In this document: positions 1 through 16,971 of the stretch, piece by piece
Layout: each line of letters starts with the position of its first letter
Numbering within the stretch: position 1 is the first letter of the stretch
Source of the DNA: Microcoleaceae cyanobacterium
Lineage (GTDB): Bacteria; Cyanobacteriota; Cyanobacteriia; Cyanobacteriales; Microcoleaceae
Length of the DNA: 16,971 bases
Direction of reading: 5' to 3'
Assembly (NCBI GenBank): GCA_051652765.1
Contig: JBOFUV010000025.1
Span: 1-16,971, forward strand
The notes under the pieces: generated by a model
The model's input: only the letters and a program-made list of their open reading frames with translations
Database searches by the model: none
What the model was told of the DNA's origin: nothing
Position numbers and translations under genes: made by a program

Positions 1-2935
1 GAATCTCAACGGTTCCGTGATAACCATCGACTCGAACCTGTTGCCCATTTTTTAGGTAAGTTGTTGCATTGGCAATATTCATCACCGCCGGAATCCCATA
101 CTCTCGGGCGATAATGGCTCCATGGGAAAGTTGCCCTCCAACCTCAGCAATGATCGCCTTAGCATTGAATAGCAGGGGAGCCCATCCAGCATCCGTGTAG
201 GGAACCACCAGAATCTGTTTTTCTCCAGCCAGAGCCGCATCAGCTAAGCTCCGCAGGACTTGAACAGTCCCTTCAACACACCCTATACTGGCTGGAATTC
301 CGGTTAGAATTGCAGCACTACTTGAAGATTGCTGCTTTTGAAGTTCAGGTTCAAGTTCAGGTAAGAAATTGCCATAGACCACATTAGGAATAGAGCGCTG
401 AATATTCTGTTCAAACTGTTGTCGTCGATGTTGAACTTTTTCTGATAAACCATCCGTTTGATGGGTCAAAATCCACTGCTGAATTTCAGAAAACTCTAGA
501 AAGAAAATATCTCCAGTCTGTTGAAAAATTTCCGTGTTTAACCCCTGGGTTTCAATTGCGAGGAATGTCCAGCGCAGGTGTGCCAAAAGTTTTCCATAGA
601 TTTCACTAATTTGACCTTTGATTATCGTGCACTGATCACACTGTTGGAGCCGCCAGTGTTGCCAAATATTCAAACTAGTTCTGGCAATTTTTTCGGGCTT
701 TTGGCTGTAGTTCTGAACCAGGTTCAACAGCATTGTTTGAAAGATTTCAGGTTGCTCTTGCCAAGTTGGAATTGCAATATCAGTTCCGACTTCACTCAGA
801 TAGCCGTAAGTTGAAAGCCAGTCTTGAAACTGAGTTTTTAAGCTTAAATTTTGCTTGAACTCCTGCTCAAGTTCTGACAAGGTTAATGACTCTTGCGAGT
901 TAGAGTCCGCCCTCAATTGATTAGCCAATTGATTAGCCAATTGTTGTAAGGCTTCAATGGAGGCCACCTCTGGTGAGGTTTCTGTTGGCAACCAAGAGTC
1001 TGGAACTCGAAAGATTCTGCACCGTATTGCCAAACCAATCGGCCCCAAAATATTATAATAGGTGATTGGCTTCAACACCGCTTGAATTCTTTCAGCTCGG
1101 GTCAAAAGTTGAGGCAAAGAGCATGTGTTTAAATCTTGGTTCTCAGTTTCTAACTGTTGAATTTCAGGGAGAAAAATGGCTTGGCGATCACGCTTAAATT
1201 CTGTTACTAATGCAATTTCTTTTTGGACGAGCCGTAACAATCCCGGTAGTGAAGAAAATACTTTTTTCAGAGGTGGCTTTCCCATTTTTTGACCGCGCAG
1301 GAGGAATTCTAATCCCTGTTCTGGCAACCCCATCATCCGAAAAATTTCCCCGAGCAACGTCGCATTAAAGTAAGCATGGGAACCCAGTAGGGTTGCCGTT
1401 TCAGTAAAGTCGAGCTGTTCTGCTCGTTTACCTAAGACTAGGGTAAAAATCTGTCCCCAAACCCCACAGGTTAGAGGTCGGTTAATTGACCAAGTGAGGG
1501 GACGAATTGCTCCGGGAATAACTTCGGCGGCAATAGTACGTGTCCAAATGGGGCGAAGGTTAGTAATAGGGCGGGCCTGAAAAATCCAGAGCGTTTCTTC
1601 ATCCCAGCCCCACTCAATATCCTGAGGCAAACCGTGATAGAACCCTTCAATTCTACGACCTTGCTCGACTAATTTTGCGGCTAAATCTTGGGGAAAAACT
1701 GAGTTCTGGATTTTGCTCAAACTTTCGGCTTGAGCTTCAACTGTGCTGATGTTAATTTCCAGGTGAATAGGAGTTTTTTGCCCACCGACAACTGCCTCTG
1801 CGCCACCCGGTAGGGCTTCAATCACAATGGTTGCTGCCCCATCCAAGGGATTGCGACTGAAGAGAACTCCGGCAAATTGACTCTGAATATAAGGCTGAAT
1901 TAAGACAGCAATTCCCTGACTCGAAAGCTGACGCTGTTGACGGTAGGAAATTGCTATTTCGCTCCCGTAAGATTGACGACATTGATGAATTGCAGTTGCC
2001 AACTCTGTCTGAGTTGAAACAGGGCCAATTGTGTCATATTGTCCGGCGGCTGAGCTTGATTCGCTATCTTCTTCTAAGGCAGATGAACGCACAATTAATG
2101 GGAAGTGAGAAGCCGCAATTGGAAGTTCCTCCAAAGATGATTCTTCTTGGGTTAACTGTTTGATTTTTTCCAGGGTTAAAGCAGGTAAAACCCACCCCAT
2201 TGGCACGGCAAATCCAGCGCCTTTGAGTTGACTGAGACAGGCAGCTTTTTTTCCATAAATCTTGCTATCCAATTCCTGATCTAAAAAGGTTAAATGCTGC
2301 TGTTTCATCTGTTTTTGTTGCATATTGTGTTGCATATAAAGTTCTAGGTCATCTGCTTGACGAAGATTAATCAATATCAGCAAGCCTGCTAATCCGATTG
2401 CCGCAACCCATTCTCCGGTAGACAAGGGAATAGGTTGCGGCCATTGATGCCAAGCCCAAACCCAAAGGGGACTGATAGCACAAGCCCAACGCACGGCTCG
2501 CTGTCGGGCAGCAGGGGCATCTTGGGGCGAGATCCAAACGCCCAACTGCCAGAGCATTAGGCCCACTAAACCCGTCGTCAGCACAACGGCAGGGGAGTAG
2601 ACCCACAGCCCCCAGGTGACGTTGGTAACACCTCCTCCTTTGCCAATCCAATACCGTCCCGCCACAAGGGCAATCAGTCCAACAAGTTCCCAAGCGGGTT
2701 GATTGGGGAACCAGTAACGCGCTAACAAAACCGGGGCAATCCCTCTAGCAACTTCTGTCAATACCGCAGCGACTCCTCCCTTCATTCCGGCGTGGACAAA
2801 GGCAGCAGAAACCCCGACATTCCCAGTGCCCAATTGGGTTAAGTCTTTTTGGGTTAGGAACTTAACTCCATAAAGAGTTAGGGGCATTGCCCCTAAACTA
2901 AAACAAACTAACAGCAGAGCGATTTGTAATAACAT
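1..2935 (-). CDS. Fusion of a PlsY-like glycerol-3-phosphate acyltransferase domain, a PPDK/PEP-synthase-type ATP-grasp domain and a C-terminal PEP-utiliser phospho-His swivel domain (3'-partial, >=978 aa)
   Basis: Manual translation from ATG at 2935 (MLLQIALLLVCFSLGAMPLT) stays open to base 2 (...VRVDGYHGTVEI). The first ~200 aa are hydrophobic, with PlsY-like motifs DLTQLGTGNVGVSAAF and GKGGGVTNVTWG. ATP-grasp motifs follow: YGKKAACLSQLKGAGFAVP, LIVRSSALEED...AAGQYDT, AGVLFSRNP, PQDIEWGWD...WIFQARPIT. The swivel motif is YTDAGWAPL...EVGGQLSHGAIIAREYGIPAV (His codon at 122-124). It is absent from the ORF track because there is no stop codon in the window. Confidence 0.9.
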   Translation of the reverse strand, partial: MLLQIALLLVCFSLGAMPLTLYGVKFLTQKDLTQLGTGNVGVSAAFVHAGMKGGVAAVLTEVARGIAPVLLARYWFPNQPAWELVGLIALVAGRYWIGKGGGVTNVTWGLWVYSPAVVLTTGLVGLMLWQLGVWISPQDAPAARQRAVRWACAISPLWVWAWHQWPQPIPLSTGEWVAAIGLAGLLILINLRQADDLELYMQHNMQQKQMKQQHLTFLDQELDSKIYGKKAACLSQLKGAGFAVPMGWVLPALTLEKIKQLTQEESSLEELPIAASHFPLIVRSSALEEDSESSSAAGQYDTIGPVSTQTELATAIHQCRQSYGSEIAISYRQQRQLSSQGIAVLIQPYIQSQFAGVLFSRNPLDGAATIVIEALPGGAEAVVGGQKTPIHLEINISTVEAQAESLSKIQNSVFPQDLAAKLVEQGRRIEGFYHGLPQDIEWGWDEETLWIFQARPITNLRPIWTRTIAAEVIPGAIRPLTWSINRPLTCGVWGQIFTLVLGKRAEQLDFTETATLLGSHAYFNATLLGEIFRMMGLPEQGLEFLLRGQKMGKPPLKKVFSSLPGLLRLVQKEIALVTEFKRDRQAIFLPEIQQLETENQDLNTCSLPQLLTRAERIQAVLKPITYYNILGPIGLAIRCRIFRVPDSWLPTETSPEVASIEALQQLANQLANQLRADSNSQESLTLSELEQEFKQNLSLKTQFQDWLSTYGYLSEVGTDIAIPTWQEQPEIFQTMLLNLVQNYSQKPEKIARTSLNIWQHWRLQQCDQCTIIKGQISEIYGKLLAHLRWTFLAIETQGLNTEIFQQTGDIFFLEFSEIQQWILTHQTDGLSEKVQHRRQQFEQNIQRSIPNVVYGNFLPELEPELQKQQSSSSAAILTGIPASIGCVEGTVQVLRSLADAALAGEKQILVVPYTDAGWAPLLFNAKAIIAEVGGQLSHGAIIAREYGIPAVMNIANATTYLKNGQQVRVDGYHGTVEI
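914..943. repeat. In-frame 12-bp tandem duplication (CAATTGATTAGC x2.5) inside the fusion gene
   Basis: caattgattagc caattgattagc caattg; encodes QLANQLANQL on the minus strand. Confidence 0.85.
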
Positions 2936-2936
2936 T

Positions 2937-2950
2937 TTGTAATATTACAA
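2937..2950. promoter_or_regulatory. Perfect 14-bp palindrome TTGTAATATTACAA directly upstream of the fusion gene start (candidate operator)
   Basis: The sequence equals its own reverse complement and lies 1 bp from the ATG at 2935. A regulatory role is inference only. Confidence 0.3.
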
Positions 2951-3124
2951 GACTTACGGATTGACAGAATTCAGAAAGTATAAACTCTAGGAAACATAGA
3001 CTAAAAGAGGTTCTTGAGCGCTGAACTCACGGGCAACCCTAGGTACAAGTCATTTTATGCAATTGATACCAATTTCACATCTGCTGTTGCCAACATCTAA
3101 GTTTTAACTCGATCAGGGCTTGTA

Positions 3125-3240
3125 ATATTAAATCTGGCTAGATTGCTGGTGATTAGAGAGGTGTGAAGGCTTAGCTTCCACGAAGGGGGCCAGCCCCCTT
3201 CACCCCCTTTTTTCTACGGTTATTCAAACGGATTTGATAT
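3125..3240. mobile_element. MITE-like / small dispersed repeat (116 bp) with degenerate terminal inverted repeats and an internal GC hairpin
   Basis: Left end ATATTAAATCTG (3125-3136) matches the reverse complement of right end CGGATTTGATAT (3229-3240) at 10/12. Internal perfect 8-bp stem GAAGGGGG-ccag-CCCCCTTC at 3182-3201; GTGAAGG upstream can also pair with CCTTCAC. Confidence 0.5.
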
Positions 3241-3361
3241 AACAAGCAGAACAACTGGAGATGGATACCTCACACAAGCCCCCTGAAAAGCGCTGTGATC
3301 CTTTCTTTACAGTTGGCAGGAGCAAGTTTAAGGAATCTGCCTCCGTGTGTAATGGGCCGCT

Positions 3362-3386
3362 AAAAAAGGGGGCATTTCCACCCTCT
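3362..3386 (-). terminator. Possible weak intrinsic terminator downstream of the GMC oxidoreductase gene
   Basis: Minus strand reads AGAGGGTGGAAATGCCCCCTTTTTT: an imperfect GC stem followed by six T, about 40 bp after the stop at 3429. Confidence 0.3.
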
Positions 3387-3428
3387 GGTTACATCTGATT
3401 TCTGGCTGCTACGGGGTGAGACACGCCA

Positions 3429-4967
3429 TCACTCAGCTAAATTAGAAATTCCTACTGTTGATGTTGCTGTTGTCTGAAGTAGATGCTGACCCAGGCGACG
3501 GGCTAGGGCTAGAATTGTGAAAGTAGGCGAGTATGATGGCCCTGTAGGGAACACTGCTGAACCTGCAATGTAGAGGTTTTCAGTGCCAAACACTCGACAA
3601 TTAGGATCAGTAACCCCTTCTTCAGGGCAACTTGCCATCCGTGTAGTTCCCATCTGATGTGCAGCATCGGTCATTGTCTCTAAACTGGGTGGATCATCAC
3701 CAAAGTCGAAGGTTCCTAGACCCGCTGCCTCGAACCGCTGGGTCAAAAATTCCAGGGTCTTTGCCATTGAGCGTCGATCCTGGTCAGTGAAACACCAGTT
3801 AAGCTCTATTTTTCTTTGTCCCAGAGAATCGCGTTCAGTTCCGAGCCTAAGGCGACTATTTCGTTGAGGAGCCTGTTCGGTCACAAACTTCACCCGATAG
3901 TTGTCAATTGCCCCATTACCATCACGACAAGCCGGACGACCCCGCAGGGTTCGCCACAAACGCCCAATTTTGCCCTCATACATGGGTTGCAGATACAGAA
4001 CATGTTCGAGCAACTTGTATTCTTTTTGGGTCGCACTATCGAGGGCAAAGCAAATGCAGAATCTCGGCTTTGGCCCGTATTGCAACTCCTTGGCAAACTG
4101 TCGCGCCAGAGGGCCGGGGTAAAGTTTGCCCGTGTGATGCTTCGGATGGTCTGTGTAAAAGCGCCCAACCAGGTCGTGGCTATTCCCAATCCCGCCAGGG
4201 ATTTGACGATCAGAAGATAGGAGCAGACGTGGAGTTTCAAATCCCCCCATCGCCAGGATAATATTTTCACCTTCAACAACCAGTTCTCGCCCTTCCAGGG
4301 AACGGCAATTTACCGCTGCTACCCGTCGGCAGGAGTCATCCAGTGTTAATTCAGTCGCAGTTGCGCCCAACACGACCTGTAAATTTTTCGAGCGACGCAT
4401 TTCCTCACCGAAGCGAACTGCTGTACGGGTTGGCGTTTCCTCCCAGTAGAAACTAGTTAGTTTCAAGCCACTCGCCCCAATCTGAGTTCGAAGGGCTGCA
4501 ACCTCTGATCTCATCGCCTCTGCTTCTAAATCACCAAAGCCATAATCTTTTCCAGTAGAGCGATAATATTCCAGAAGTTCGACAAAGGGAATCGGCCAAC
4601 CACTGTAGGCAACCCAAGGTCTGACCTCAAAGTCTGAAGGCTGCAGGTATTTCCATTTCCCCGTCCAGACATTACTCGTGCCACCAAACTGCCGCACCCG
4701 ACTCACTCCCCGTAGTTCAGGAGACAAGTAGTGATGATAGTAGGAGTCTGGGTTCAACTCACGATGGCGCTTACCCAAAAAGATGACATCATTCAAGGCT
4801 TGAATGGATGGGTCAAATTGAGCGCGTCCACTTTCTAACAGCACGACATCTCGACCATGACGTGCTAGATATGTGGCCACCTCAGCACCTGCAATTCCAG
4901 AGCCAATAACAACTGTCTGTCCTCGGAGTTGCGTCTGTTCACCTATCTCAAGAATATCAGTAATCAT
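3429..4967 (-). CDS. GMC family (glucose-methanol-choline) FAD-dependent oxidoreductase, 512 aa
   Basis: Rossmann motif VVIGSGIAG...VVLLESG, then FGGTSNVWTG, ILAMGGFETPRLLLSS, DLVGRFYTDHP, and C-terminal AAHQMGTTRM and NLYIAGSAVFPTG. Confidence 0.92.
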   Translation of the reverse strand: MITDILEIGEQTQLRGQTVVIGSGIAGAEVATYLARHGRDVVLLESGRAQFDPSIQALNDVIFLGKRHRELNPDSYYHHYLSPELRGVSRVRQFGGTSNVWTGKWKYLQPSDFEVRPWVAYSGWPIPFVELLEYYRSTGKDYGFGDLEAEAMRSEVAALRTQIGASGLKLTSFYWEETPTRTAVRFGEEMRRSKNLQVVLGATATELTLDDSCRRVAAVNCRSLEGRELVVEGENIILAMGGFETPRLLLSSDRQIPGGIGNSHDLVGRFYTDHPKHHTGKLYPGPLARQFAKELQYGPKPRFCICFALDSATQKEYKLLEHVLYLQPMYEGKIGRLWRTLRGRPACRDGNGAIDNYRVKFVTEQAPQRNSRLRLGTERDSLGQRKIELNWCFTDQDRRSMAKTLEFLTQRFEAAGLGTFDFGDDPPSLETMTDAAHQMGTTRMASCPEEGVTDPNCRVFGTENLYIAGSAVFPTGPSYSPTFTILALARRLGQHLLQTTATSTVGISNLAE

Positions 4968-4998
4968 ATGGCCTGTCTTCGTGCAAAATTGTGTAGAG

Positions 4999-5931
4999 TT
5001 AACGAGGATTTGAAATTGACGGCGGGAAGCTGCTTCTTAAGGAAGAAAGCATTTTCAATAACTGATTTTTGTAAGGAGATCCTAACCGGGCAGTGACATG
5101 AGTGGGATGTATCAGAAAGGCTTTCCCCAAAGCTTTTGCAGCCATTAAATTCTGCCCACTTCGTTGCAGCATGTCAGCATGATTAAATACAAAATCTGCA
5201 AACTTTTGCCGCGAATGGCTCATAAATAGGGCGTGATGCTTGGCAAGAAGCTGCTCAAAACTGCGCTGGCGACGTTGCGAACTTGAAGAGACACGAACAC
5301 CTTCATGGGCTGATAGGTGGTAGGTAACTTCTGAGATTCCCCACAGTGAGCAAACTGGATTGAGTCGTAGGAACAACTCAGTGTGTACCCGCGAGGTAAA
5401 ACTTGGATCAAATCCTCCCAGACTTAACAGTACTTCTCGTTCAATGACCAGGGTTTGCTTAGAAAAAAACGACTCATCTGGTCGAATCTCCTCTAGAGAA
5501 AAATGAGATCCCTTCGGCAAGGTTGGTGGCAGGTGGGTCTCTAGAACTTGCCCCTGGGTGTTGACAATATTGAGCCCAAACAACACAGCGATGGGTTCAG
5601 GTAAATCTCGAGGAAGTTGTCCGATTGCGCCCATCGCCTTTTCAGCCATATCAGGCAGCAACACATCATCATCATCCAAATAAGTAATCCAATGAGCACG
5701 AGCCGCGATCGCCCCTTGGTTACGAGCTGCTGCGCCCCCCTGGTTGGGATCTAAGCGGATGAGCCTAAGGTTTTCTTGTTCTGGCAATGTTACCGCTGGT
5801 GTAGAGCCATCATCTACAATAATGACTTCAACATCCGTCATCGTTTGACTTAGAGCACTATGAACTGCTCTAGGCAGAAGGTCAGGACGATTATAAGTTG
5901 GAATAATAATACTGAGACAGGGAGAATCCAT
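4999..5931 (-). CDS. Glycosyltransferase family 2 (GT-A fold), 310 aa
   Basis: LSIIIPTYNRP, SALSQT, EVIIVDDGS, NQGGAAARNQG, DxD motif YLDDDD, LGGFD. Lies 31 bp upstream of the GMC gene in the same orientation. Confidence 0.93.
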   Translation of the reverse strand: MDSPCLSIIIPTYNRPDLLPRAVHSALSQTMTDVEVIIVDDGSTPAVTLPEQENLRLIRLDPNQGGAAARNQGAIAARAHWITYLDDDDVLLPDMAEKAMGAIGQLPRDLPEPIAVLFGLNIVNTQGQVLETHLPPTLPKGSHFSLEEIRPDESFFSKQTLVIEREVLLSLGGFDPSFTSRVHTELFLRLNPVCSLWGISEVTYHLSAHEGVRVSSSSQRRQRSFEQLLAKHHALFMSHSRQKFADFVFNHADMLQRSGQNLMAAKALGKAFLIHPTHVTARLGSPYKNQLLKMLSSLRSSFPPSISNPR

Positions 5932-10195: not shown

Positions 10196-10240
10196 AATTA
10201 ACTAGTCAAACAATTAACTAGCCAGACAATTCTAGCCAAG
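10194..10240. repeat. Imperfect 16-bp tandem repeat overlapping the GT4 stop codon
   Basis: acaattaactagtcaa / acaattaactagccag / acaattctagccaag. Confidence 0.75.
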
Positions 10241-11368
10241 GGTGTCCACCATAATTTGATGCATCGTTTTTGCCCAAGCCTCCCAATTTAACCGAGCATC
10301 GTACTCTGCTCTAGAAGAAAGCACAAGTTGTTGATAGCGATCTTTATCTGCAAAGGTTGCAGCGATTAATTCAGCATATTGATCCCCAGAGGCTGAGAGC
10401 GGAAACATATAGCCATTCTTGCCCTCTCTGATGATCGTTGGAATGCCACCGACATTAGTGGTCATCACAGGAATCCCGTAAGCATTGGCTTCGCAGATCA
10501 CAATCGGAGAACAGTCTGCCCGAGTTGGGAAAATTAAAAAGTGAGACTCCAACAGCAATTGACTGAACTGCTGCTGCTCTTGAGGAATATTTTTATTCAG
10601 GAATGGAATCACGTTCAATTTTTCATGCTGAAACTCAGGCGGTGGAACACAACCAATCAGCAACAGTTCTGCATCTACCCCCCGGTCTAACAAAGCCAGA
10701 AGCGTTTCATAGGCGATACTTCCCCCCTTTCGTTGCCAGTCCTTGCCAATGAACAGCAAACGACATTTTGCCGCCTGACACTTCTGCAAGGTATCAGCCA
10801 CGGCAGGCACGATATCTACATTGGCCCCTAAAGGCATTACCTTGACCTGAGCCGGATTAGCGCCATAATCCTGTATAGCTGAATTGGCAGCCCATTCGGA
10901 CGAATAAACTAAAGTTTTTGCCTTAGAAATTGCCGTCTGATCCCGTTGAGCTGCTTGTCGGAATTCTGCCTCATCAGAATAGAGTTTGTAAGTTTCGTGG
11001 ATCAACTTTGCCGTTGCATCTGACCAATACACAATCGGAATATCTGTCTCAAAAAAACTTAGCTCTTGGGAAGCAACGGGGGCATAGATGAGGTCGCAGG
11101 GAGTCTTCTGAAGCTGACGTTGAACTTTTTGAATAAACTGTTCGTATTGGGCCTGAGGATTTTGATTTTCTTTTGAGAAAACAGAAGCAACTTTCTGGAT
11201 TAACTTTCTAGGCTTTTGCCAGGGAGAAGGGGCTTCTGGACTTCCTAAGTTCACCCAATTCATCTCTGTCGAACTCAACGCTCTGTACATTGTATAAAGT
11301 GTACCTGAGAACGTATTTTTATCGAGGTAGTTCTTAATTGAGAAATACCCAACGCTGATTTTCTTCAT
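10232..11368 (-). CDS. Glycosyltransferase family 4 (GT-B fold), 378 aa
   Basis: RLLFIGKDWQRKGG, FLIFPTRADCSPIVICEANAYGIPVMTTNVGGIPTIIREGKNGY (D-x7-E variant of the GT4 E-x7-E motif), terminal LNWEAWA. Confidence 0.93.
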   Translation of the reverse strand: MKKISVGYFSIKNYLDKNTFSGTLYTMYRALSSTEMNWVNLGSPEAPSPWQKPRKLIQKVASVFSKENQNPQAQYEQFIQKVQRQLQKTPCDLIYAPVASQELSFFETDIPIVYWSDATAKLIHETYKLYSDEAEFRQAAQRDQTAISKAKTLVYSSEWAANSAIQDYGANPAQVKVMPLGANVDIVPAVADTLQKCQAAKCRLLFIGKDWQRKGGSIAYETLLALLDRGVDAELLLIGCVPPPEFQHEKLNVIPFLNKNIPQEQQQFSQLLLESHFLIFPTRADCSPIVICEANAYGIPVMTTNVGGIPTIIREGKNGYMFPLSASGDQYAELIAATFADKDRYQQLVLSSRAEYDARLNWEAWAKTMHQIMVDTLG

Positions 11369-11506
11369 AAGAATAGAGTTGTATCAGTTTTTAATGAAAT
11401 GACGTATAAACGGAAGTCCCACGGGGGAAGTATCTCTACAAAGAGGTGCTGCCCCAATTCTCGCATCGGTCAGTCGTGATTTAGTAACGTGATTAGCGCC
11501 ATGACG

Positions 11507-11622
11507 TTAAGTAGGCGTGATTCAGTAGAAGACCCCTGTAATTCCCCTTGGTAAGGGGGACAGCGATTACCGGGGGTTAGGCAAAGGCTTTATGTTCAAA
11601 TTGATTGATTCCATTTACTTAA
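11507..11622. mobile_element. Second MITE-like / REP-like dispersed element (116 bp)
   Basis: Terminal inverted repeat TTAAGTA (11507-11513) ... TACTTAA (11616-11622) with degenerate inward extension. Internal hairpin CCCCTT-ggt-AAGGGG (11544-11558) followed by GGGGGTTAGG, resembling cyanobacterial CCCCCTT..AAGGGGG repeats. Confidence 0.45.
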
Positions 11623-11645
11623 CTCTAGAACGCCAACTCTAGAAA

Positions 11646-12455
11646 CTACCAACTATAACGACAGCCCAAAAGATCGTAAAGCTCTTCATTAAAGGGTAAA
11701 AAGTAAGTTTTTAGCTGATCGATGATGACTTGATCGGCATCAGCTTTCTCATATTTACCAACATTATGTTTCTTTTCTTGCAACTGCTCAATTTGGCTAG
11801 GTGAGAATTGCTGAATTCCTAAAAATTCACAGACTGAGGTTAGAGTTGAAGACAGATCTTTGTGGAGCTGATCCATGCTCAGAACCAGGATATTATCTCG
11901 ACTAAAGTACTTGTAATAGTTCTTCAGTTGATCAGCGTATTTGCCTCGATTAACATAATCAAAAGGATAGTCTGTATGACCGGAGTCATTCAATTCTTGA
12001 TCAACAGCATCAGCAAAGCTTCTCTCATCGGCAATGTCTCTTAAATGCTGATGGGGATTATCAGAAAAACTATGATACATCTGCCATGCTGAGTAAGCTC
12101 GCTTCGCAGGGTCTCTCAAGACCGCGATCATTTTAATATTGCCAAGATCTTGCTGAATTCGCTGAGGAATGTAATCAAAATACAGGTAACTAGGAGAAGC
12201 ATCAAAGGTCAACCGATTGCCTTTTTTGAGCTTAGAGGGGAAGTTTCCTAAATACCAGCTCAACCCTTGACTATAATTTTCAGGCAAGTCAAAATATCGA
12301 ATCTCTTTCCAGGATTTATTCTCTAGAATTTGGGGATGCTGAGTGAGATAACGATATAGAGAAGTTGTTCCCGCTTTCTGTGCGCCAATCACTAAGAAAT
12401 CCGGTTTTGACATTAAAGCCGGGTAAGCTACTTTTTTAATAAATTCCTTAATCAT
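11646..12455 (-). CDS. PAPS-dependent sulfotransferase (heparan-sulfate sulfotransferase-like motifs), 269 aa
   Basis: 5'-PSB loop PDFLVIGAQKAGTTSL, KEIRYFD, DASPSYL, 3'-PB motif LRDPAKRAYS, YVNRGKYADQL. Confidence 0.92.
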   Translation of the reverse strand: MIKEFIKKVAYPALMSKPDFLVIGAQKAGTTSLYRYLTQHPQILENKSWKEIRYFDLPENYSQGLSWYLGNFPSKLKKGNRLTFDASPSYLYFDYIPQRIQQDLGNIKMIAVLRDPAKRAYSAWQMYHSFSDNPHQHLRDIADERSFADAVDQELNDSGHTDYPFDYVNRGKYADQLKNYYKYFSRDNILVLSMDQLHKDLSSTLTSVCEFLGIQQFSPSQIEQLQEKKHNVGKYEKADADQVIIDQLKTYFLPFNEELYDLLGCRYSW

Positions 12456-12536
12456 TGACTGTTTCCTCCTAAGACAATTTGGGGGTGAAAGGTGGGACTT
12501 GAATCTGGGTTTTCGATAGGTTTAGTCGGGCTAGAT

Positions 12537-13418
12537 CTACTGTTTTTGGAGCACTAACCACTCTCTCTGAGCGGCTCCTACAGTTGTTTTAAAATTTTCA
12601 CAGGAGATCTCGGTTCCTAGCCAAGCACCAAGCTGAGCTAAGTCTTGATCAAAGACAGTCTTTAAATACTCTACTCGTTCTGGAGCTAGCTCTGGCTTTT
12701 TCTTCATTGTCCATAATCCCCTCGCCCAAGTTCGGAAATCTTTGGGAATCAATAGCCGTCGAACTTCCCGTAAACCCGGCATCTCAACTAAAAAGTCACG
12801 CCAAGCGCTCTGGCGCATTCGTTCATTCGAGACATTTTGGGCATCCAGTTCAAAGCTCCATTGGGGTTGCCCTGAATACCCAATAAACTGACAAATTCGC
12901 TGCAGTTCCTCCTGAGGAAACTTCAGGACTCTTTCAAAAAAGACGGGCAGAACCCGTTCTTGTCCAAAGACCTCGAAATACGGCTGAAGCTGCATACTAT
13001 AGCGACTGTAGTCAATTAACTCCGGACACTCATTAATGGCGCGGTTAATGTCTGTTGAAATCACCCGCATCGACCATTCATGAACATATTGGGAAACTAA
13101 ACGATCAATCGGATGACGCATCACATAAATTAATTTGACATCCGGTATCTGTTGCCGAATTCGCTCAATCGTTTTTGGATAAGTAGGCAGCTTTGTATAG
13201 TGGGTACTGGATTCGCCCCAAAGGGCCTCAGTTGGTGCTGCTTTGAAATGGGAGAGATACCAATCTGTACCTTTAGCATACTCCTCATCATTACTGAAAA
13301 AATTGGGTTCTTTTAGCTCAGGCATGAAGAGTCCTGGCTGTAAAGCCAACTGTTCATGGAGTGTGCTTGTTGCACATTTCATCGCACCAATAATGATAAA
13401 GTCTGGGTATTTTGTCAT
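12537..13418 (-). CDS. PAPS-dependent sulfotransferase, 293 aa
   Basis: PDFIIIGAMKCATSTL, KEPNFFS, GESSTHY, MRHPIDRLVSQY, YSRYSMQL. Confidence 0.92.
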   Translation of the reverse strand: MTKYPDFIIIGAMKCATSTLHEQLALQPGLFMPELKEPNFFSNDEEYAKGTDWYLSHFKAAPTEALWGESSTHYTKLPTYPKTIERIRQQIPDVKLIYVMRHPIDRLVSQYVHEWSMRVISTDINRAINECPELIDYSRYSMQLQPYFEVFGQERVLPVFFERVLKFPQEELQRICQFIGYSGQPQWSFELDAQNVSNERMRQSAWRDFLVEMPGLREVRRLLIPKDFRTWARGLWTMKKKPELAPERVEYLKTVFDQDLAQLGAWLGTEISCENFKTTVGAAQREWLVLQKQ

Positions 13419-13473
13419 AGTCTCAGGGAGTTAACGTAGCTTTGACAAAGACATCGGGCTTCTGAATCAACTC

Positions 13474-14430
13474 TCATTTCAAACGACTTTGGAAAACCGC
13501 ATTAATTCTTAAAGTAACTTGTTTTTGCCGTTCTTTAGACCCAAACTTCCGAGTTAGGAAATCTTCAATGACTAGGGGCCAGCCCAAGCGTTCCACTCGT
13601 CCTTGGACTTTTCCCCACCAATCCTGAAGACGCAGCCTTTTTTCCAGGCTTGAGGTTACCTCTAAGGCAGGCAAGCCACTTAACTCGTATCCCCGACTTT
13701 CTAACAGATGACTGGCGCGAGATTCGACCAGTTGAATTTCATGCTCAGACAACTTTCGCCGCCACTGGCCAATGTACTTTGGATCAGGTACGGTGTAGTT
13801 GCTAGTTTGGGTATAGTCCAACATTTCAGGCTCGTAGGCAACCCCGATAAATTCACACAACTGGGTGAGGACTTGAGACGGTTCTGCAATTAACCCCTCA
13901 TAAGTAATCTCCACATATCTCTGTTCTGGCAGGTGCTGCTGGAGTTCCTCCCAGAGTGTTTCTGCCTCTAGCCACCGTTCTACCCCAGTCCAAACGTTCC
14001 CCGCCCATCCCATCCCAATACAGGAACGAGCCACATCCCGAGGATCACGAATCAGATGAATAAACCGAGCGTCAGGCCAAATTTGCAGCACCCGATCAAA
14101 ATGGCGGTGAACGGTAGCCCCGATAATTGGTTTATTTTCACTCTCCCGTTTCTGGTACAGAAAACTATTAACGAGTTCTGGATAGGTCAATGTGTGATCA
14201 AGACTAAAACCCGTTGCTCGAAAGACTCGATGAGTTTCTAGCCAATCATAATACTGATTTAGATCAGGCCATTTCCCAGGATGAGAAACCTGATCCACGG
14301 CATACTCAAACTCATTACACCAAGCAATCTTCGAGTGATGCTTTAACATCAGCCTTAGAACTGTTGTCCCAGAACGTTCAGCGCCAACTAAAAAAATTGG
14401 CTCAGGAACAAGTTGATCATCAGCGCCCAT
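13474..14430 (-). CDS. PAPS-dependent sulfotransferase (Sulfotransfer_3 / tyrosylprotein-sulfotransferase-like motifs), 318 aa
   Basis: PIFLVGAERSGTTVLRLML, WPDARFIHLIRDPRDVARS, ITYEGLIAEP, LCEFIG, IGQWRRKL. Confidence 0.92.
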   Translation of the reverse strand: MGADDQLVPEPIFLVGAERSGTTVLRLMLKHHSKIAWCNEFEYAVDQVSHPGKWPDLNQYYDWLETHRVFRATGFSLDHTLTYPELVNSFLYQKRESENKPIIGATVHRHFDRVLQIWPDARFIHLIRDPRDVARSCIGMGWAGNVWTGVERWLEAETLWEELQQHLPEQRYVEITYEGLIAEPSQVLTQLCEFIGVAYEPEMLDYTQTSNYTVPDPKYIGQWRRKLSEHEIQLVESRASHLLESRGYELSGLPALEVTSSLEKRLRLQDWWGKVQGRVERLGWPLVIEDFLTRKFGSKERQKQVTLRINAVFQSRLK

Positions 14431-14523
14431 TACAAGGTTCCTTGAAATTCTTTCACTAGTCTATCTTTGCAAATCAGCCATGTCATTACCGCGCTGGGCG
14501 AAGGAGTGAAAGTCCAGAAAAGA

Positions 14524-15351
14524 CTATCGAGAAATAATTTTTTTAAGGGTTTCTTTGGCTTTTCCGAATAGGGAATTTTCTGAGAATTGTTCTCCAGGTC
14601 GAGTTTGGAATACGGTGGAATGAGCGCCAGAAACCTCATAGGCAGGTCGCCCATTGCTGTAGTAATAAAGTGCTAGAGACTTTCGAGTTCGATCTTCAGG
14701 GCAATTCAGTGCATCAGGATGGCCATGGTATGAAAAGTCTGTGGTATTAAAAATCACACAGCGGTTGAATAGGGGGAGAACTTTCTTTTCACAACCCGCC
14801 ATTTCTGAATCCCACATCTCAAAATAACCACCATACTCCTCTTCCCAATCTTTATTAAGGTAAATTAAAAGGTTGAGTCGGCGATCTAGATTCAATTTCT
14901 TATGCTTGTTGAAATCCACGTGAACTTTCAAGAATCCTCCTCTTTCAATCTGATGTAAACCACCGCCCTTGAGATGAGGATCTGGAATAATACCGTCAAT
15001 TCCTGTCAATTTTTCTAAAAATTCGACAAAGATTGAAGAATTCAACTGGTATAAAAGGAAACGTGTTGCGTCTCCAAGTTGCAATTCTGAAGTGGAACCA
15101 AGCTTCTTAGAATAAGCACCATCAAACTTGCCCCAATTAATCGCATCGGGTTGGGGAAATTCATCCAGAATAGTCTCTAGAACCGATTCTGGCAAAAAGT
15201 TGTCGATAACGATATGAGGATAAGGCTTGGCTTGAATATAGTCCTCGTGATACTGAGTTGCCAAGTGATCTAAATAATCTGGATCAAGGCAGAAAGCAAG
15301 GGTTGAGTTCATAACTTTTTCTTGAGTAGATTGGTAAGAGGCAGATTGCAC
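14524..15351 (-). CDS. 2OG-Fe(II) oxygenase (prolyl-4-hydroxylase-like fold)
   Basis: AKPYPHIVIDNFL, GGGLHQI, HxD motif LKVHVDFN, LNLLIYLNKDW, distal His in SYHGHP, 2OG-binding Arg in RKSLALYYY. The start may instead be the ATG at 15312 (MNSTLAF). Confidence 0.9.
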   Translation of the reverse strand: MQSASYQSTQEKVMNSTLAFCLDPDYLDHLATQYHEDYIQAKPYPHIVIDNFLPESVLETILDEFPQPDAINWGKFDGAYSKKLGSTSELQLGDATRFLLYQLNSSIFVEFLEKLTGIDGIIPDPHLKGGGLHQIERGGFLKVHVDFNKHKKLNLDRRLNLLIYLNKDWEEEYGGYFEMWDSEMAGCEKKVLPLFNRCVIFNTTDFSYHGHPDALNCPEDRTRKSLALYYYSNGRPAYEVSGAHSTVFQTRPGEQFSENSLFGKAKETLKKIISR

Positions 15352-15359
15352 GCAAAAAA

Positions 15360-16277
15360 TTACTGATTCCAGTGAGACAGATCCCGGTTCAGAAATTCAA
15401 CCAGTTTCTGATTGGGCTCCTGAAACTTTTCTAGGAGCATCTGACGAGTTTCATGCAACATTGGTGGGGGAGTGTATTGTTCAGATGTCCAACCCGTGTA
15501 TTTCAGCTTTTTAACAACCTGGTATACTTGATCTTTAATCCCTTTCGGGAGCATCCCTGATATCAAATTCATACCAGCAACTGATTTTAGAGAAGCAGTT
15601 AATTGCTGTTTCACATACCATTCTGGCCGATCACTTGCTGTGTTGGCAATAACCTCACCTGCTTGAGTTAAATCAAGGGTTGGATCAACCCCAATAAAAT
15701 TACAAATTGTGCCCATGACTTCGACTGGTTTTTTGATCAAATCTTCCATCAGCACAGGCAATAACGAGGTCTTAGGAAAAACTTCTAGATATCTTTCAAT
15801 CTGATATGTGTAACAACTACTTTCGACAAATTCAGAACTCTGCTGAATGGCTTCCTCAAACGTTCTGGCTGTTGTTAATTCATTTCTGGCCGCTAGAAAA
15901 TCCGGGTTTTGTTGACTCCCTTTGAAGCGAAATGCATAAAAAGAATAGGCACAATCCACCGGATGTCGCATGATGTAAATCAGCTTGACATTTGGAAGTG
16001 CCTCAGCTAAACGTTCTACTGTCTTTGGATGTCGCTGTAATCTGGAATAAGTCGTTGAGGCTTCGCCACAAACTTGATCGGGTTCAGCTTTCTCAAACAG
16101 GGAACTATACCAATTCATACCTCGAGCGTAATTCTGATCTAGAGAGAAGAAATCAGGCTCTTTCGGCTTACTCATGTACACATGAGGATGACGACAAAGA
16201 TATTGATAAAGTGTTGTCGTTCCTGACTTGGCAGCGCCAATAATAATAAAGTTAGGCTTCTGCATAAAATTGGCCAT
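15360..16277 (-). CDS. PAPS-dependent sulfotransferase, 305 aa
   Basis: PNFIIIGAAKSGTTTLY, KEPDFFS, GEASTTYS, MRHPVDCAYS, C-terminal LNRDLSHW. Confidence 0.92.
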   Translation of the reverse strand: MANFMQKPNFIIIGAAKSGTTTLYQYLCRHPHVYMSKPKEPDFFSLDQNYARGMNWYSSLFEKAEPDQVCGEASTTYSRLQRHPKTVERLAEALPNVKLIYIMRHPVDCAYSFYAFRFKGSQQNPDFLAARNELTTARTFEEAIQQSSEFVESSCYTYQIERYLEVFPKTSLLPVLMEDLIKKPVEVMGTICNFIGVDPTLDLTQAGEVIANTASDRPEWYVKQQLTASLKSVAGMNLISGMLPKGIKDQVYQVVKKLKYTGWTSEQYTPPPMLHETRQMLLEKFQEPNQKLVEFLNRDLSHWNQ

Positions 16278-16537: not shown

Positions 16538-16971
16538 CTAGATGACATACTGCAAATTACTTGCATCAGGGCTAGTAACGGTGACATTTCTTACCAAAGC
16601 GATTAACTCATCTGAGTTGTCATAGCGCTGATTGGCATTGCTATCGAGGTAGATGCCTGTGCCACTCGCCTCATCAATCGAGGTTGGATTCAGCACATAC
16701 TGGTTAGGAGTTCCCCACAAAGCGATCACATCCACTTCAGGATTAAAGTCCATGATCAAGGCGTAATCGCTTGTTCCGGGTGTCGCACTATTACCGTCGT
16801 TGTAATAGGCTTGGTTCTGGTCACCTAAGATGAACAAGTTAGCGCCGGTTCCGCCGGTTAGGGTGTCAATTTCGGTTATCCCAGGGGTTGATGCCGTTGG
16901 ATCGATACCTGTGAGAGTATCGTTATCCTCATCGCCCCAGAGTTTGTCATTGCCTGTCCCGCCCATGACAA
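16538..16971 (-). CDS. C-terminal end of an RTX/hemolysin-type calcium-binding secreted or surface protein (5'-partial)
   Basis: The frame is open to the right edge. Nonapeptide repeats GGTGNDKLW, GDEDNDTLT and DTLTGGTGANLF; cyanobacterial RTX-type tail YYNDG...DYALIMDFNP...DELIALV; DxNxN Ca-loop-like DSNANQRYDNSDE. Confidence 0.82.
   Translation of the reverse strand, partial: VMGGTGNDKLWGDEDNDTLTGIDPTASTPGITEIDTLTGGTGANLFILGDQNQAYYNDGNSATPGTSDYALIMDFNPEVDVIALWGTPNQYVLNPTSIDEASGTGIYLDSNANQRYDNSDELIALVRNVTVTSPDASNLQYVI

Follow-up and report, generated by a model that had tools for sequence, protein, structure and literature searches.

PlsX and the fatty-acid kinase FakA/FakB are the two known sources of acyl-phosphate. 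For PlsY, the membrane enzyme that acylates glycerol-3-phosphate (G3P), acyl-phosphate is the only donor known, as far as the account in PMC5700162 goes. Rifampin phosphotransferase (RPH) is a dikinase with an ATP-grasp domain, a substrate-binding domain and a phosphohistidine swivel domain in that order. In its description of the sites, PMC4844700 places Lys22, Arg117 and Thr136 at the ATP site, His825 as the catalytic histidine and Arg666-Glu667 (with Lys670) at an acceptor site that is kept even in the most distant clades. The same three dikinase domains are found in PigC, HapC and RedH (NF052631, NF052632), and HapC and PigC, as PMC13534948 describes them, first phosphorylate a hydrophobic intermediate and afterwards join it to a second substrate, which makes them the nearest precedent for activation followed by transfer. 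Here we describe a gene from a Microcoleaceae cyanobacterium that joins a domain of PlsY fold to an RPH-type dikinase in one chain. It lies in a stretch of 16,971 nucleotides (the window), which is the first 16,971 bases of contig C25 (JBOFUV010000025.1) in an assembly of 5.04 Mb and 99.97% completeness. The fused architecture is confirmed, and the probable role of the enzyme is to phosphorylate, and thereby activate, a fatty or otherwise membrane-bound compound, which is then handed on within the membrane.

The fusion gene occupies 2..2935 on the minus strand. It opens with an ATG at 2935, and the open reading frame (ORF) analysis of the window found no stop codon down to base 2, a frame of 978 codons. 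The last two codons and the TGA stop are found on contig C123, whose start overlaps the window end of the gene by 117 nt with 2 synonymous mismatches and then reads on from ...GTVEI to Leu-Glu-stop. Because C123 adds only two codons and a stop, the protein is about 980 residues long and has no barrel; a convergent adenylosuccinate-synthetase-like (purA-like) gene lies after the stop on C123. The original prediction, made from the letters of the window alone, had described an uninterrupted frame with no phosphoenolpyruvate (PEP)/pyruvate barrel inside the window; both points are borne out, and no barrel follows past the window edge. The codon it had named for the swivel histidine (122-124) is also correct, as His938 is encoded by CAT at window 124..122. 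The overlap, window 1-117 against positions 2-118 of C123 (L002), places an assembly break inside the last 40 codons of the gene, and strain variants may be its cause.

The protein is composed of a PlsY-fold membrane domain (residues 1-205; 2321..2935, minus strand), an ATP-grasp domain (residues 214-458; 1562..2296, minus strand), a central substrate-binding domain of RPH type (residues 459-867; 335..1561, minus strand) and a phosphohistidine swivel domain (residues 868-978; 2..334, minus strand). The three Pfam families that the original prediction had proposed to search for are all found above their cut-offs, with G3P_acyltransf (PF02660) at residues 10-189 (57.1 bits, cut-off 24.1), PPDK_N (PF01326) at residues 276-460 (126.5 bits) and PEP-utilizers (PF00391) at residues 905-974 (79 bits). 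The fusion protein has no Pfam match to the barrel family PEP-utilizers_C (PF02896). On the central region the Pfam 38.1 family Rph_4th (PF27448) is annotated in 105 of 120 listed homologues. In cluster look-ups residues 1-215 retrieved only clusters of PlsY (0.82-0.83), and residues 465-860 only those of Rph_4th. In profile comparisons the membrane domain matches aaPlsY (5xj5, E 2e-13) and the soluble module has RPH-Lm as its best solved relative (E ~1e-111). The best-scoring NCBIfam models are PRK06241-type 'PEP synthase' subfamilies, rifampin phosphotransferase and PigC, all far below cut-off: 224.1 bits against 999 for NF041857 and 145.6 against 1700 for NF000283 in the case of RPH, and 203.5 against 1300 and 175.6 against 1350 for the PigC and RedH models. 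The C-terminus of the protein aligns to position 863 of 864 in the RPH model and 881 of 883 in the PigC model. The best 120 database matches, all from filamentous cyanobacteria and 50-61% identical, are fused in the identical architecture without exception, and as it is common to all of them the architecture is far beyond what chance would give.

Structure prediction leads to the same relatives. The full-length model, built on a 47-sequence alignment, has a predicted local distance difference test score (pLDDT) of 89.3 and a predicted template modelling score (pTM) of 0.75. Searched with Foldseek, it places the six entries of RPH-Lm (PDB 5FBS/5FBT/5FBU and 5HV1-3) first, with E values of 9e-31 to 9e-20, and finds the PlsY structures 5xj5-8 at template modelling (TM) scores of 0.67-0.73. 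VIA-align superposes model residues 214-978 on residues 4-865 of RPH 5hv3, the whole RPH length (Z 35.4, 665 residues aligned), and residues 1-201 on PlsY 5xj7 (Z 18.8, root-mean-square deviation (rmsd) 2.8 A, 180 of 193 residues). Profiles, Foldseek and VIA-align thus agree with the original prediction that the order of ATP-grasp, substrate and swivel domains is that of RPH and PigC and not that of PEP synthase. PEP synthase and pyruvate phosphate dikinase (PPDK) share the ATP-grasp and swivel-histidine domains with the fusion protein, but its swivel is C-terminal and not central, and the PEP/pyruvate triose-phosphate-isomerase (TIM) barrel is absent. RPH in turn has no N-terminal domain of PlsY fold. 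HpeHI, as far as its published description goes, is another split RPH-type dikinase that acts on small hydrophobic compounds, and HpeI (PDB 9GOJ) matches the ATP-grasp domain with Z 18.0; however, its split falls between the ATP-grasp domain and the rest, its substrates are phenols and no membrane partner is described. PlsX and FakA/FakB have no sequence or fold relation to the soluble module, although they would be its functional counterparts if the module supplies a PlsY-type enzyme with acyl-phosphate.

The membrane domain has the fold of PlsY (aaPlsY, PDB 5XJ5-9; TIGR00023) with its seven helices, GxGN motif, glycine-rich Loop3 and E/D-x-x-K/R-G motif, but it has lost much of the known active site. 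In the PlsY site described in PMC5700162, Ser35, Arg45, Lys104 and Asn180 clamp the phosphate of G3P, Ser142 and His177 are ligands of its 2-hydroxyl group, and Asn37 stabilises the oxyanion. Acyl-phosphate is held there by the side chains of His92 and Thr41, which contact its phosphate and acyl carbonyl specifically, and by the backbone of Loop3, the 'phosphate hole'. At these columns the window protein has Thr37 for Ser35, Val47 for Arg45, Asn39 for Asn37, Ser43 for Thr41 and Arg94 for His92. The Lys104 column is deleted, Asn42 of PlsY is Ala, Loop3 is one residue shorter, and no His..Asn is found where PlsY has His177..Asn180. What the G3P clamp of PlsY requires is therefore missing from the window protein, and because the clamp is lost, it is very unlikely that G3P serves as acceptor. 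The original prediction had called this part a PlsY-like acyltransferase; the PlsY fold stands, but a working PlsY as it is known does not, since the clamp is gone. The family models point the same way: the best PlsY-type NCBIfam model, PRK14416.1, reaches 30.2 bits against a cut-off of 222, and the PlsY equivalog TIGR00023 (cut-off 137.2 bits) is not among the matches listed for the window protein, which cover 25 of 33 families.

The positions that have changed are themselves conserved. Residue counts out of 121 refer here and below to close homologues, and counts out of 15 to diverse fused members. The counterpart of the PlsY GSGN motif (Ser35, Asn37) is G36-T37-G38-N39 (2819..2830, minus strand), with Thr37 in 119/121 and Asn39 in 121/121. 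Arg94, in the column of the phosphate ligand His92 (2654..2656, minus strand), is Arg in 121/121, and the shortened Loop3, K99-G100-G101-G102 (2630..2641, minus strand), which lacks the PlsY Lys104, keeps its three glycines in 121/121. Where the last membrane helix ends on the cytoplasmic side, in the place of His177..Asn180, an Asp195-Asp196 pair (2348..2353, minus strand) is found in 121/121; it coincides with the Asn180 column or is up to three residues away from it, an assignment that depends on the alignment, as that column shifts by 2-3 residues. Variation is seen at residue 43, in the Thr41 column (Ser in 102/121, Ala in 18/121), and at position 47, in the Arg45 column, where the six commonest residues (I/T/S/Y/V/L), never Arg, account for 120 of the 121. 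Among the diverse fused members, Arg45 is kept in 0/15, Lys104 in 1/15 and His92 in 0/15 (Arg in 8). Judged from these alignments, the membrane domain no longer has the pocket for an anionic acceptor but possesses a strictly conserved, remodelled site.

The dikinase half retains its catalytic residues. Lys230, Arg283 and Thr302, which correspond to Lys22, Arg117 and Thr136 of RPH, and the swivel histidine are kept: Lys230, Arg283 and His938 in all 121 close homologues and Thr302 in 112 (Ser in 9). By these residues the phosphorylating machinery is intact. The central domain also has invariant residues of its own (W482, S483, N485, Y522, F523, N524, E543, W725 and R788), and a single-sequence search of it against a single RPH gave no alignment (-0.6 bits). 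Profile and family alignments place Lys773-Gly774 ... Glu778 (602..619, minus strand) at the columns of the RPH acceptor dyad Arg666-Glu667, a mapping that is alignment-dependent and needs a 5-residue insertion relative to RPH. Lys773 is found in 121/121 close homologues and is followed by Asn (76), Gly (23), Ser (18), Ala (3) or Thr (1), never by an acid. One helical turn later, Glu778 is kept in 108/121, and the invariant Arg788 aligns to Arg676 of RPH. The dyad columns read R-[E/D] in 15/15 unfused relatives and in 4/6 non-cyanobacterial fused members; in all 26 sequences of cyanobacterial type the second residue is non-acidic. We regard the changed Arg-Glu dyad as a real difference of uncertain meaning, given that the mapping depends on the alignment.

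The predicted models give an indication of where the phosphate may be passed on. The full-length model matches PPDK 1kbl tightly over the ATP-grasp and swivel domains (rmsd 3.2 A), and therefore has its histidine domain at the ATP site. When residues 459-978 are folded without the ATP-grasp domain (45-sequence alignment; pLDDT 86.5, pTM 0.88), the resulting model superposes as a single body on 5fbs, 5fbt, 5hv1 and 5fbu, the RPH structures with the swivel placed on the rifampin-binding domain. Residues 1-520 of the model are matched there to residues 325-865 of the chain, with 438-449 residues aligned at an rmsd of 4.0-4.3 A (Z 25.6-26.1). With 5hv2 and 5hv3, in which the swivel occupies the ATP site, the alignment is confined to the central domain (335-336 residues, Z ~17). 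The predicted docking resembles that of RPH with rifampin-phosphate, and because the swivel docks as in RPH, the models suggest that the second phosphotransfer site is the central domain and not the membrane domain.

Outside the cyanobacteria the two halves are found both split and fused. An exhaustive search returned fused proteins down to 26% identity, and many proteins of ~740-830 aa that cover only residues 215-978 at ~30% identity. For 15 of these unfused proteins we scanned metagenomes, which gave 78 loci, and searched the surroundings with a hidden Markov model (HMM) of the fused membrane domain. A PlsY-like ORF was found in 53/78 loci. Flanks of 700 nt or more on each side are available for 44 of the loci; in this set 1 is fused, 27 have an abutting PlsY-like gene on the same strand (12 upstream, 15 downstream), 9 have one nearby, 19-3565 nt away, and 7 have none. 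A PlsY-like gene within 5 kb is thus kept in 37/44 loci. The original prediction had named, as sequence findings that would speak against it, a barrel beyond the window edge and homologues mostly in unlinked genes, and neither is what we find. A tree built from 77 soluble modules groups the 11 fused proteins of cyanobacteria in a single clade (Shimodaira-Hasegawa approximate likelihood-ratio test, SH-aLRT, 100), and the remaining fused forms stand in at least two further places among the split forms. With fused forms in at least three places of the tree, the fusion arose more than once. The repeated independent fusion, together with the tight operon linkage in other phyla, makes this a clean 'Rosetta-stone' case of two proteins that work together.

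The PlsY-like partners differ in their sites, so that the family of PlsY-like/dikinase pairs is not uniform. 'Type A' partners (15 rows, mostly abutting upstream, two of them fused) resemble the non-cyanobacterial fused forms and have a G[ST]GN motif, Thr at the His92 column, a KGGK loop and no His177/Asn180; their Arg45 column holds K in 9, R in 4, H in 1 and Y in 1, and their Lys104 column K in 14 and R in 1. 'Type B' partners, mostly abutting downstream or nearby, have a GGR loop and in most cases Thr41; all 18 downstream and all 12 nearby partners keep His92, as do 8 of the 21 upstream ones. They are without Arg45 and His177 and have Glu or Asp at the Asn180 column (18/18 downstream). The split partners reach 77 and 90 bits with the TIGR00023 equivalog, below its cut-off. 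In type B both PlsY side chains for acyl-phosphate are kept and the G3P pocket is dropped, which is the strongest hint of acyl-phosphate that the sequences offer. The hint is indirect for the clade of the window protein, which has a different site again, with Arg94, Ser43 and a shortened loop.

Several other genes recur in the split loci. Proteins of ~410-450 aa with a chelatase fold and weak matches to ferrochelatase/CbiX/CfbA are found in 13 split loci, often with genes of MacB-type exporters. In three loci (L101, L119 and L124) such a protein, of ~430 aa and with an N-terminal extension of ~100-130 residues ahead of the chelatase match, lies between the dikinase and the PlsY-like gene, and in L151 a weaker chelatase relative, visible only in NCBIfam, takes this place. 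Parts of MacB-type exporters (ATP-binding cassette (ABC) ATPase, FtsX/MacB_PCD permease, HlyD and LolA-like proteins) are present in 13 split loci and PucC-type carriers of the major facilitator superfamily (MFS) in 3; further genes code for alpha/beta-hydrolases, one DegV protein and DedA/VTT proteins. These neighbours hint at a hydrophobic, possibly exported substrate, with the reservation that the loci are not independent lineages. Across cyanobacterial families (20 genomes), no gene of any of these kinds is linked to the fused gene.

Two other candidates from these loci were rejected. In L112 an apparent fusion of a PlsY-like protein with PucC was produced by calling ORFs from stop to stop, as its matches lie in different frames, and a 'second dikinase paralogue' (128 ORFs, 78 loci) came from single-linkage joining via fused members. 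On one metagenome contig a heliorhodopsin gene (L107:3593-4405, plus strand) lies ~600 nt upstream of a split dikinase/PlsY-like pair.

For the distribution within the phylum we used an even sample of 151 genomes, 150 after excluding that of the window. The full-length fused gene is found in 44/49 genomes of the same order and in 6/11 genomes from other orders of the class, and in 0/90 sampled genomes from the other classes of the phylum. It is always a single frame, of 944-1056 aa. The five genomes of the same order without it have exactly one PF02660 match each, which is canonical, and as this is their sole match they lack the split form as well. The fusion gene is widespread but dispensable.

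How might such an enzyme work? Our preferred reading is that His938 would be loaded from ATP at the ATP-grasp domain and the swivel would then carry the phosphate to the central domain. There a lipophilic substrate would be phosphorylated, most likely on a carboxylate to give an acyl-phosphate, and the attached PlsY-derived domain would use the acyl-phosphate to acylate an acceptor other than G3P. The site of the second phosphotransfer follows from the predicted docking and may well be the central domain; that the phosphorylated product is an acyl-phosphate and that the membrane domain transfers the acyl group are further steps that we infer. We prefer acyl-phosphate because enzymes of PlsY type are known only with this donor, because type B partners keep its site and because the genome has no FakA/FakB. 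The 'activate and transfer' hypothesis of the original prediction so gains some support, from the side chains that type B partners retain and from the predicted docking of the swivel. Taken as a whole, acyl-phosphate made by the soluble module and acyl transfer to a non-G3P acceptor by the membrane domain is a plausible account that we hold tentatively and would not yet call likely. In PigC and HapC both steps take place in their soluble substrate domain, whereas the second step of the fusion protein would take place in the membrane domain. A bolder version, in which the pair is a third route to acyl-phosphate, independent of PlsX and FakA/FakB and wired to a PlsY-derived acyltransferase with a new, non-anionic acceptor, seems to us somewhat unlikely as it stands. 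Here the histidine-relay dikinase would phosphorylate a free fatty or other lipophilic acid, with coupling by fusion in cyanobacteria and by operon elsewhere.

A number of observations weigh against this preferred reading. We know of no RPH-type dikinase that phosphorylates a carboxylate, and the genome already makes acyl-phosphate via PlsX. In the descriptions given by the respective papers, the acceptors of RPH-type enzymes are hydroxyl or enol oxygens, namely the C21-hydroxyl group of rifampin (PMC4844700), phenols (PMC12167813) and 4-methoxy-2,2'-bipyrrole-5-carbaldehyde (MBC; PMC13534948). The acyl-phosphate site in the clade of the window protein is itself altered: Arg stands for His92, Ala for Asn42, and Loop3 is shortened by one residue. 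Thr, and not His, fills the His92 column of type A partners and of the fused forms outside the cyanobacteria, and these keep basic residues at the Arg45 column (13/15 type A rows) and the Lys104 column (15/15). In the cyanobacterial clade the RPH acceptor dyad is replaced, by an alignment-dependent mapping, by Lys followed by Asn, Gly, Ser, Ala or Thr. The predicted docking may simply echo the RPH crystal structures seen by the predictor, and any route between the central domain and the site in the membrane is hypothetical.

The main rival is that the protein is a kinase of lipids or hydrophobic alcohols, in which the phosphohistidine phosphorylates a hydroxyl group of a membrane lipid, for example polyprenol, phytol, diacylglycerol or a glycolipid, and no acyl group is transferred. 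The PlsY-derived domain would then extract or present the lipid, and its phosphate loop would hold the phosphorylated head group. This would fit the chemistry of the family, as phosphorylation of hydroxyl or enol groups is all that is documented for RPH-type dikinases in the accounts of PMC4844700, PMC13534948 and PMC12167813. It would also fit the membrane domain, which has lost its G3P acceptor site and retained a phosphate-binding loop together with the new invariant Arg94, and in which the invariant Asp195-Asp196 could act as a base or metal site. However, type B partners keep Thr41 and His92, which in the PlsY site described in PMC5700162 are contacts of acyl-phosphate; the predicted ground state has His938 on the central and not on the membrane domain; and no lipid-metabolism gene is a conserved neighbour in cyanobacteria (20 genomes). 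We consider phosphorylation of a lipid hydroxyl somewhat unlikely, and the role of lipid presenter that it gives to the membrane domain similarly doubtful. Less probable still is a membrane-tethered kinase of small molecules, such as a xenobiotic or a signalling metabolite, that acts like RPH or HpeHI and uses the PlsY part as an anchor or a sensor of membrane state. The RPH family does consist of broad small-molecule dikinases with diverse substrates, the highly conserved central domain could be self-sufficient, and in 7/44 loci of unfused relatives with sufficient flanks a neighbouring PlsY-like gene is absent. But an anchor would not keep Asn39, Arg94, Gly100-102 and Asp195-196 all at 121/121, which is why we do not take the membrane domain for a mere anchor, nor would one be expected as a separate abutting gene in 27/44 loci or in repeated independent fusions.

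The names under which these proteins are stored would make them a G3P acyltransferase and/or a PEP synthase, and we consider it very improbable that either is right. The source names of the best 120 matches are 'glycerol-3-phosphate acyltransferase' or 'pyruvate, water dikinase', and they agree with the Pfam matches to PF02660, PF01326 and PF00391, all above cut-off. Against them stand the missing G3P clamp, the missing PEP/pyruvate barrel and the equivalog scores, with PlsY-type models at 30 against 222 bits at best and all PEP-synthase equivalogs far below cut-off (PEP_synth, TIGR01418: 163 bits, cut-off 740). Both functions are moreover provided for elsewhere in the genome. As the original prediction had proposed, we looked for standalone plsX and plsY, and both are present: a canonical PlsY (151 bits) with the motifs GSGSTGSTNVLR, GHTKSVWINFKGGKAVATG and HKGNIERL, and a PlsX (409 bits). 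A barrel-containing paralogue of PEP-synthase type is also found, and the FakA/FakB fatty-acid kinase families (PF02734, PF02645) were not found in this genome of 99.97% completeness. The five genomes of the same order without the fusion gene each have one canonical PlsY, which speaks against the names too.

The residues of this large, single-copy and strongly conserved enzyme argue against its database names, which would mislead models of how cyanobacteria make lipids and run their central carbon metabolism. As both halves come from well-understood families, one a phosphate shuttle and the other a user of acyl-phosphate, the hypothesis is directly testable. If it is true, it would reveal a new way of activating lipids or metabolites at the membrane and would extend the chemistry of RPH-type dikinases beyond antibiotic resistance, pigment synthesis and aromatic catabolism. 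A third route to acyl-phosphate, if real, would mean an undescribed pathway of lipid or metabolite acylation in most genomes of the window's large order, tied elsewhere to chelatase-like proteins, PucC-type carriers and MacB-type exporters. A full-text literature search, with most subscription journals outside its coverage, found no publication on a PlsY-like/dikinase fusion, nor any biochemical or genetic data on it.

The surroundings of the gene give little indication of partners in cyanobacteria. In 20 genomes of different families no neighbour is conserved in more than 5/20 loci, and none at a fixed adjacent position on the same strand. Upstream of the fusion gene a spacer of 493 nt (2936..3428) separates it from a glucose-methanol-choline (GMC) oxidoreductase gene. 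A terminator-like hairpin at 3370-3383 (minus strand) lies in this spacer behind the GMC gene, and an Rfam scan of the spacer found no RNA family, the best match being sub-threshold (23.4 against 58.6 bits). A look-up of public sequencing runs listed none, and no RNA holder either. The GMC oxidoreductase, the family 2 glycosyltransferase (GT2) and the purA-like gene adjoin the fusion in 0/80 related loci and a DUF697 GTPase in 1/80, and we rejected these window neighbours as partners since they are not conserved and the hairpin lies between. Within the Microcoleaceae, 35/80 loci have an ORF of 151 aa without a Pfam match immediately upstream of the fusion gene on the same strand (for example L023:7488-7943, plus strand); in the genome of the window all that is found of it is a fragment broken by three stop codons, on a different contig (C112:1475-1654; L089). 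Genes for RTX/PAP2, LmeA-like, MacB and HlyD proteins also recur near the fusion gene in Microcoleaceae loci.

Some observations concern other genes of this genome. The canonical plsY (L006:1459-2193, plus strand, contig C93) codes for 244 aa and carries a perfect tandem insert, IYNLQ x5, in the loop between the second and third conserved PlsY motifs, which is unusual for a compact membrane enzyme. In the window, the GMC oxidoreductase and GT2 genes (3429-5931, minus strand) are 31 nt apart and have far-sub-threshold NCBIfam matches to the mycofactocin system, with MftG as the top match for the GMC gene and MftF second for GT2; the pair has no linkage to the fusion gene in other genomes. Further on, genes for a family 4 glycosyltransferase (GT4), four sulfotransferases and a 2-oxoglutarate (2OG)-Fe(II) oxygenase (10232-16277, minus strand, and 16538-16969) lie beside an RTX-repeat ORF, and this run suggests a cluster that makes a sulfated glycan or metabolite.

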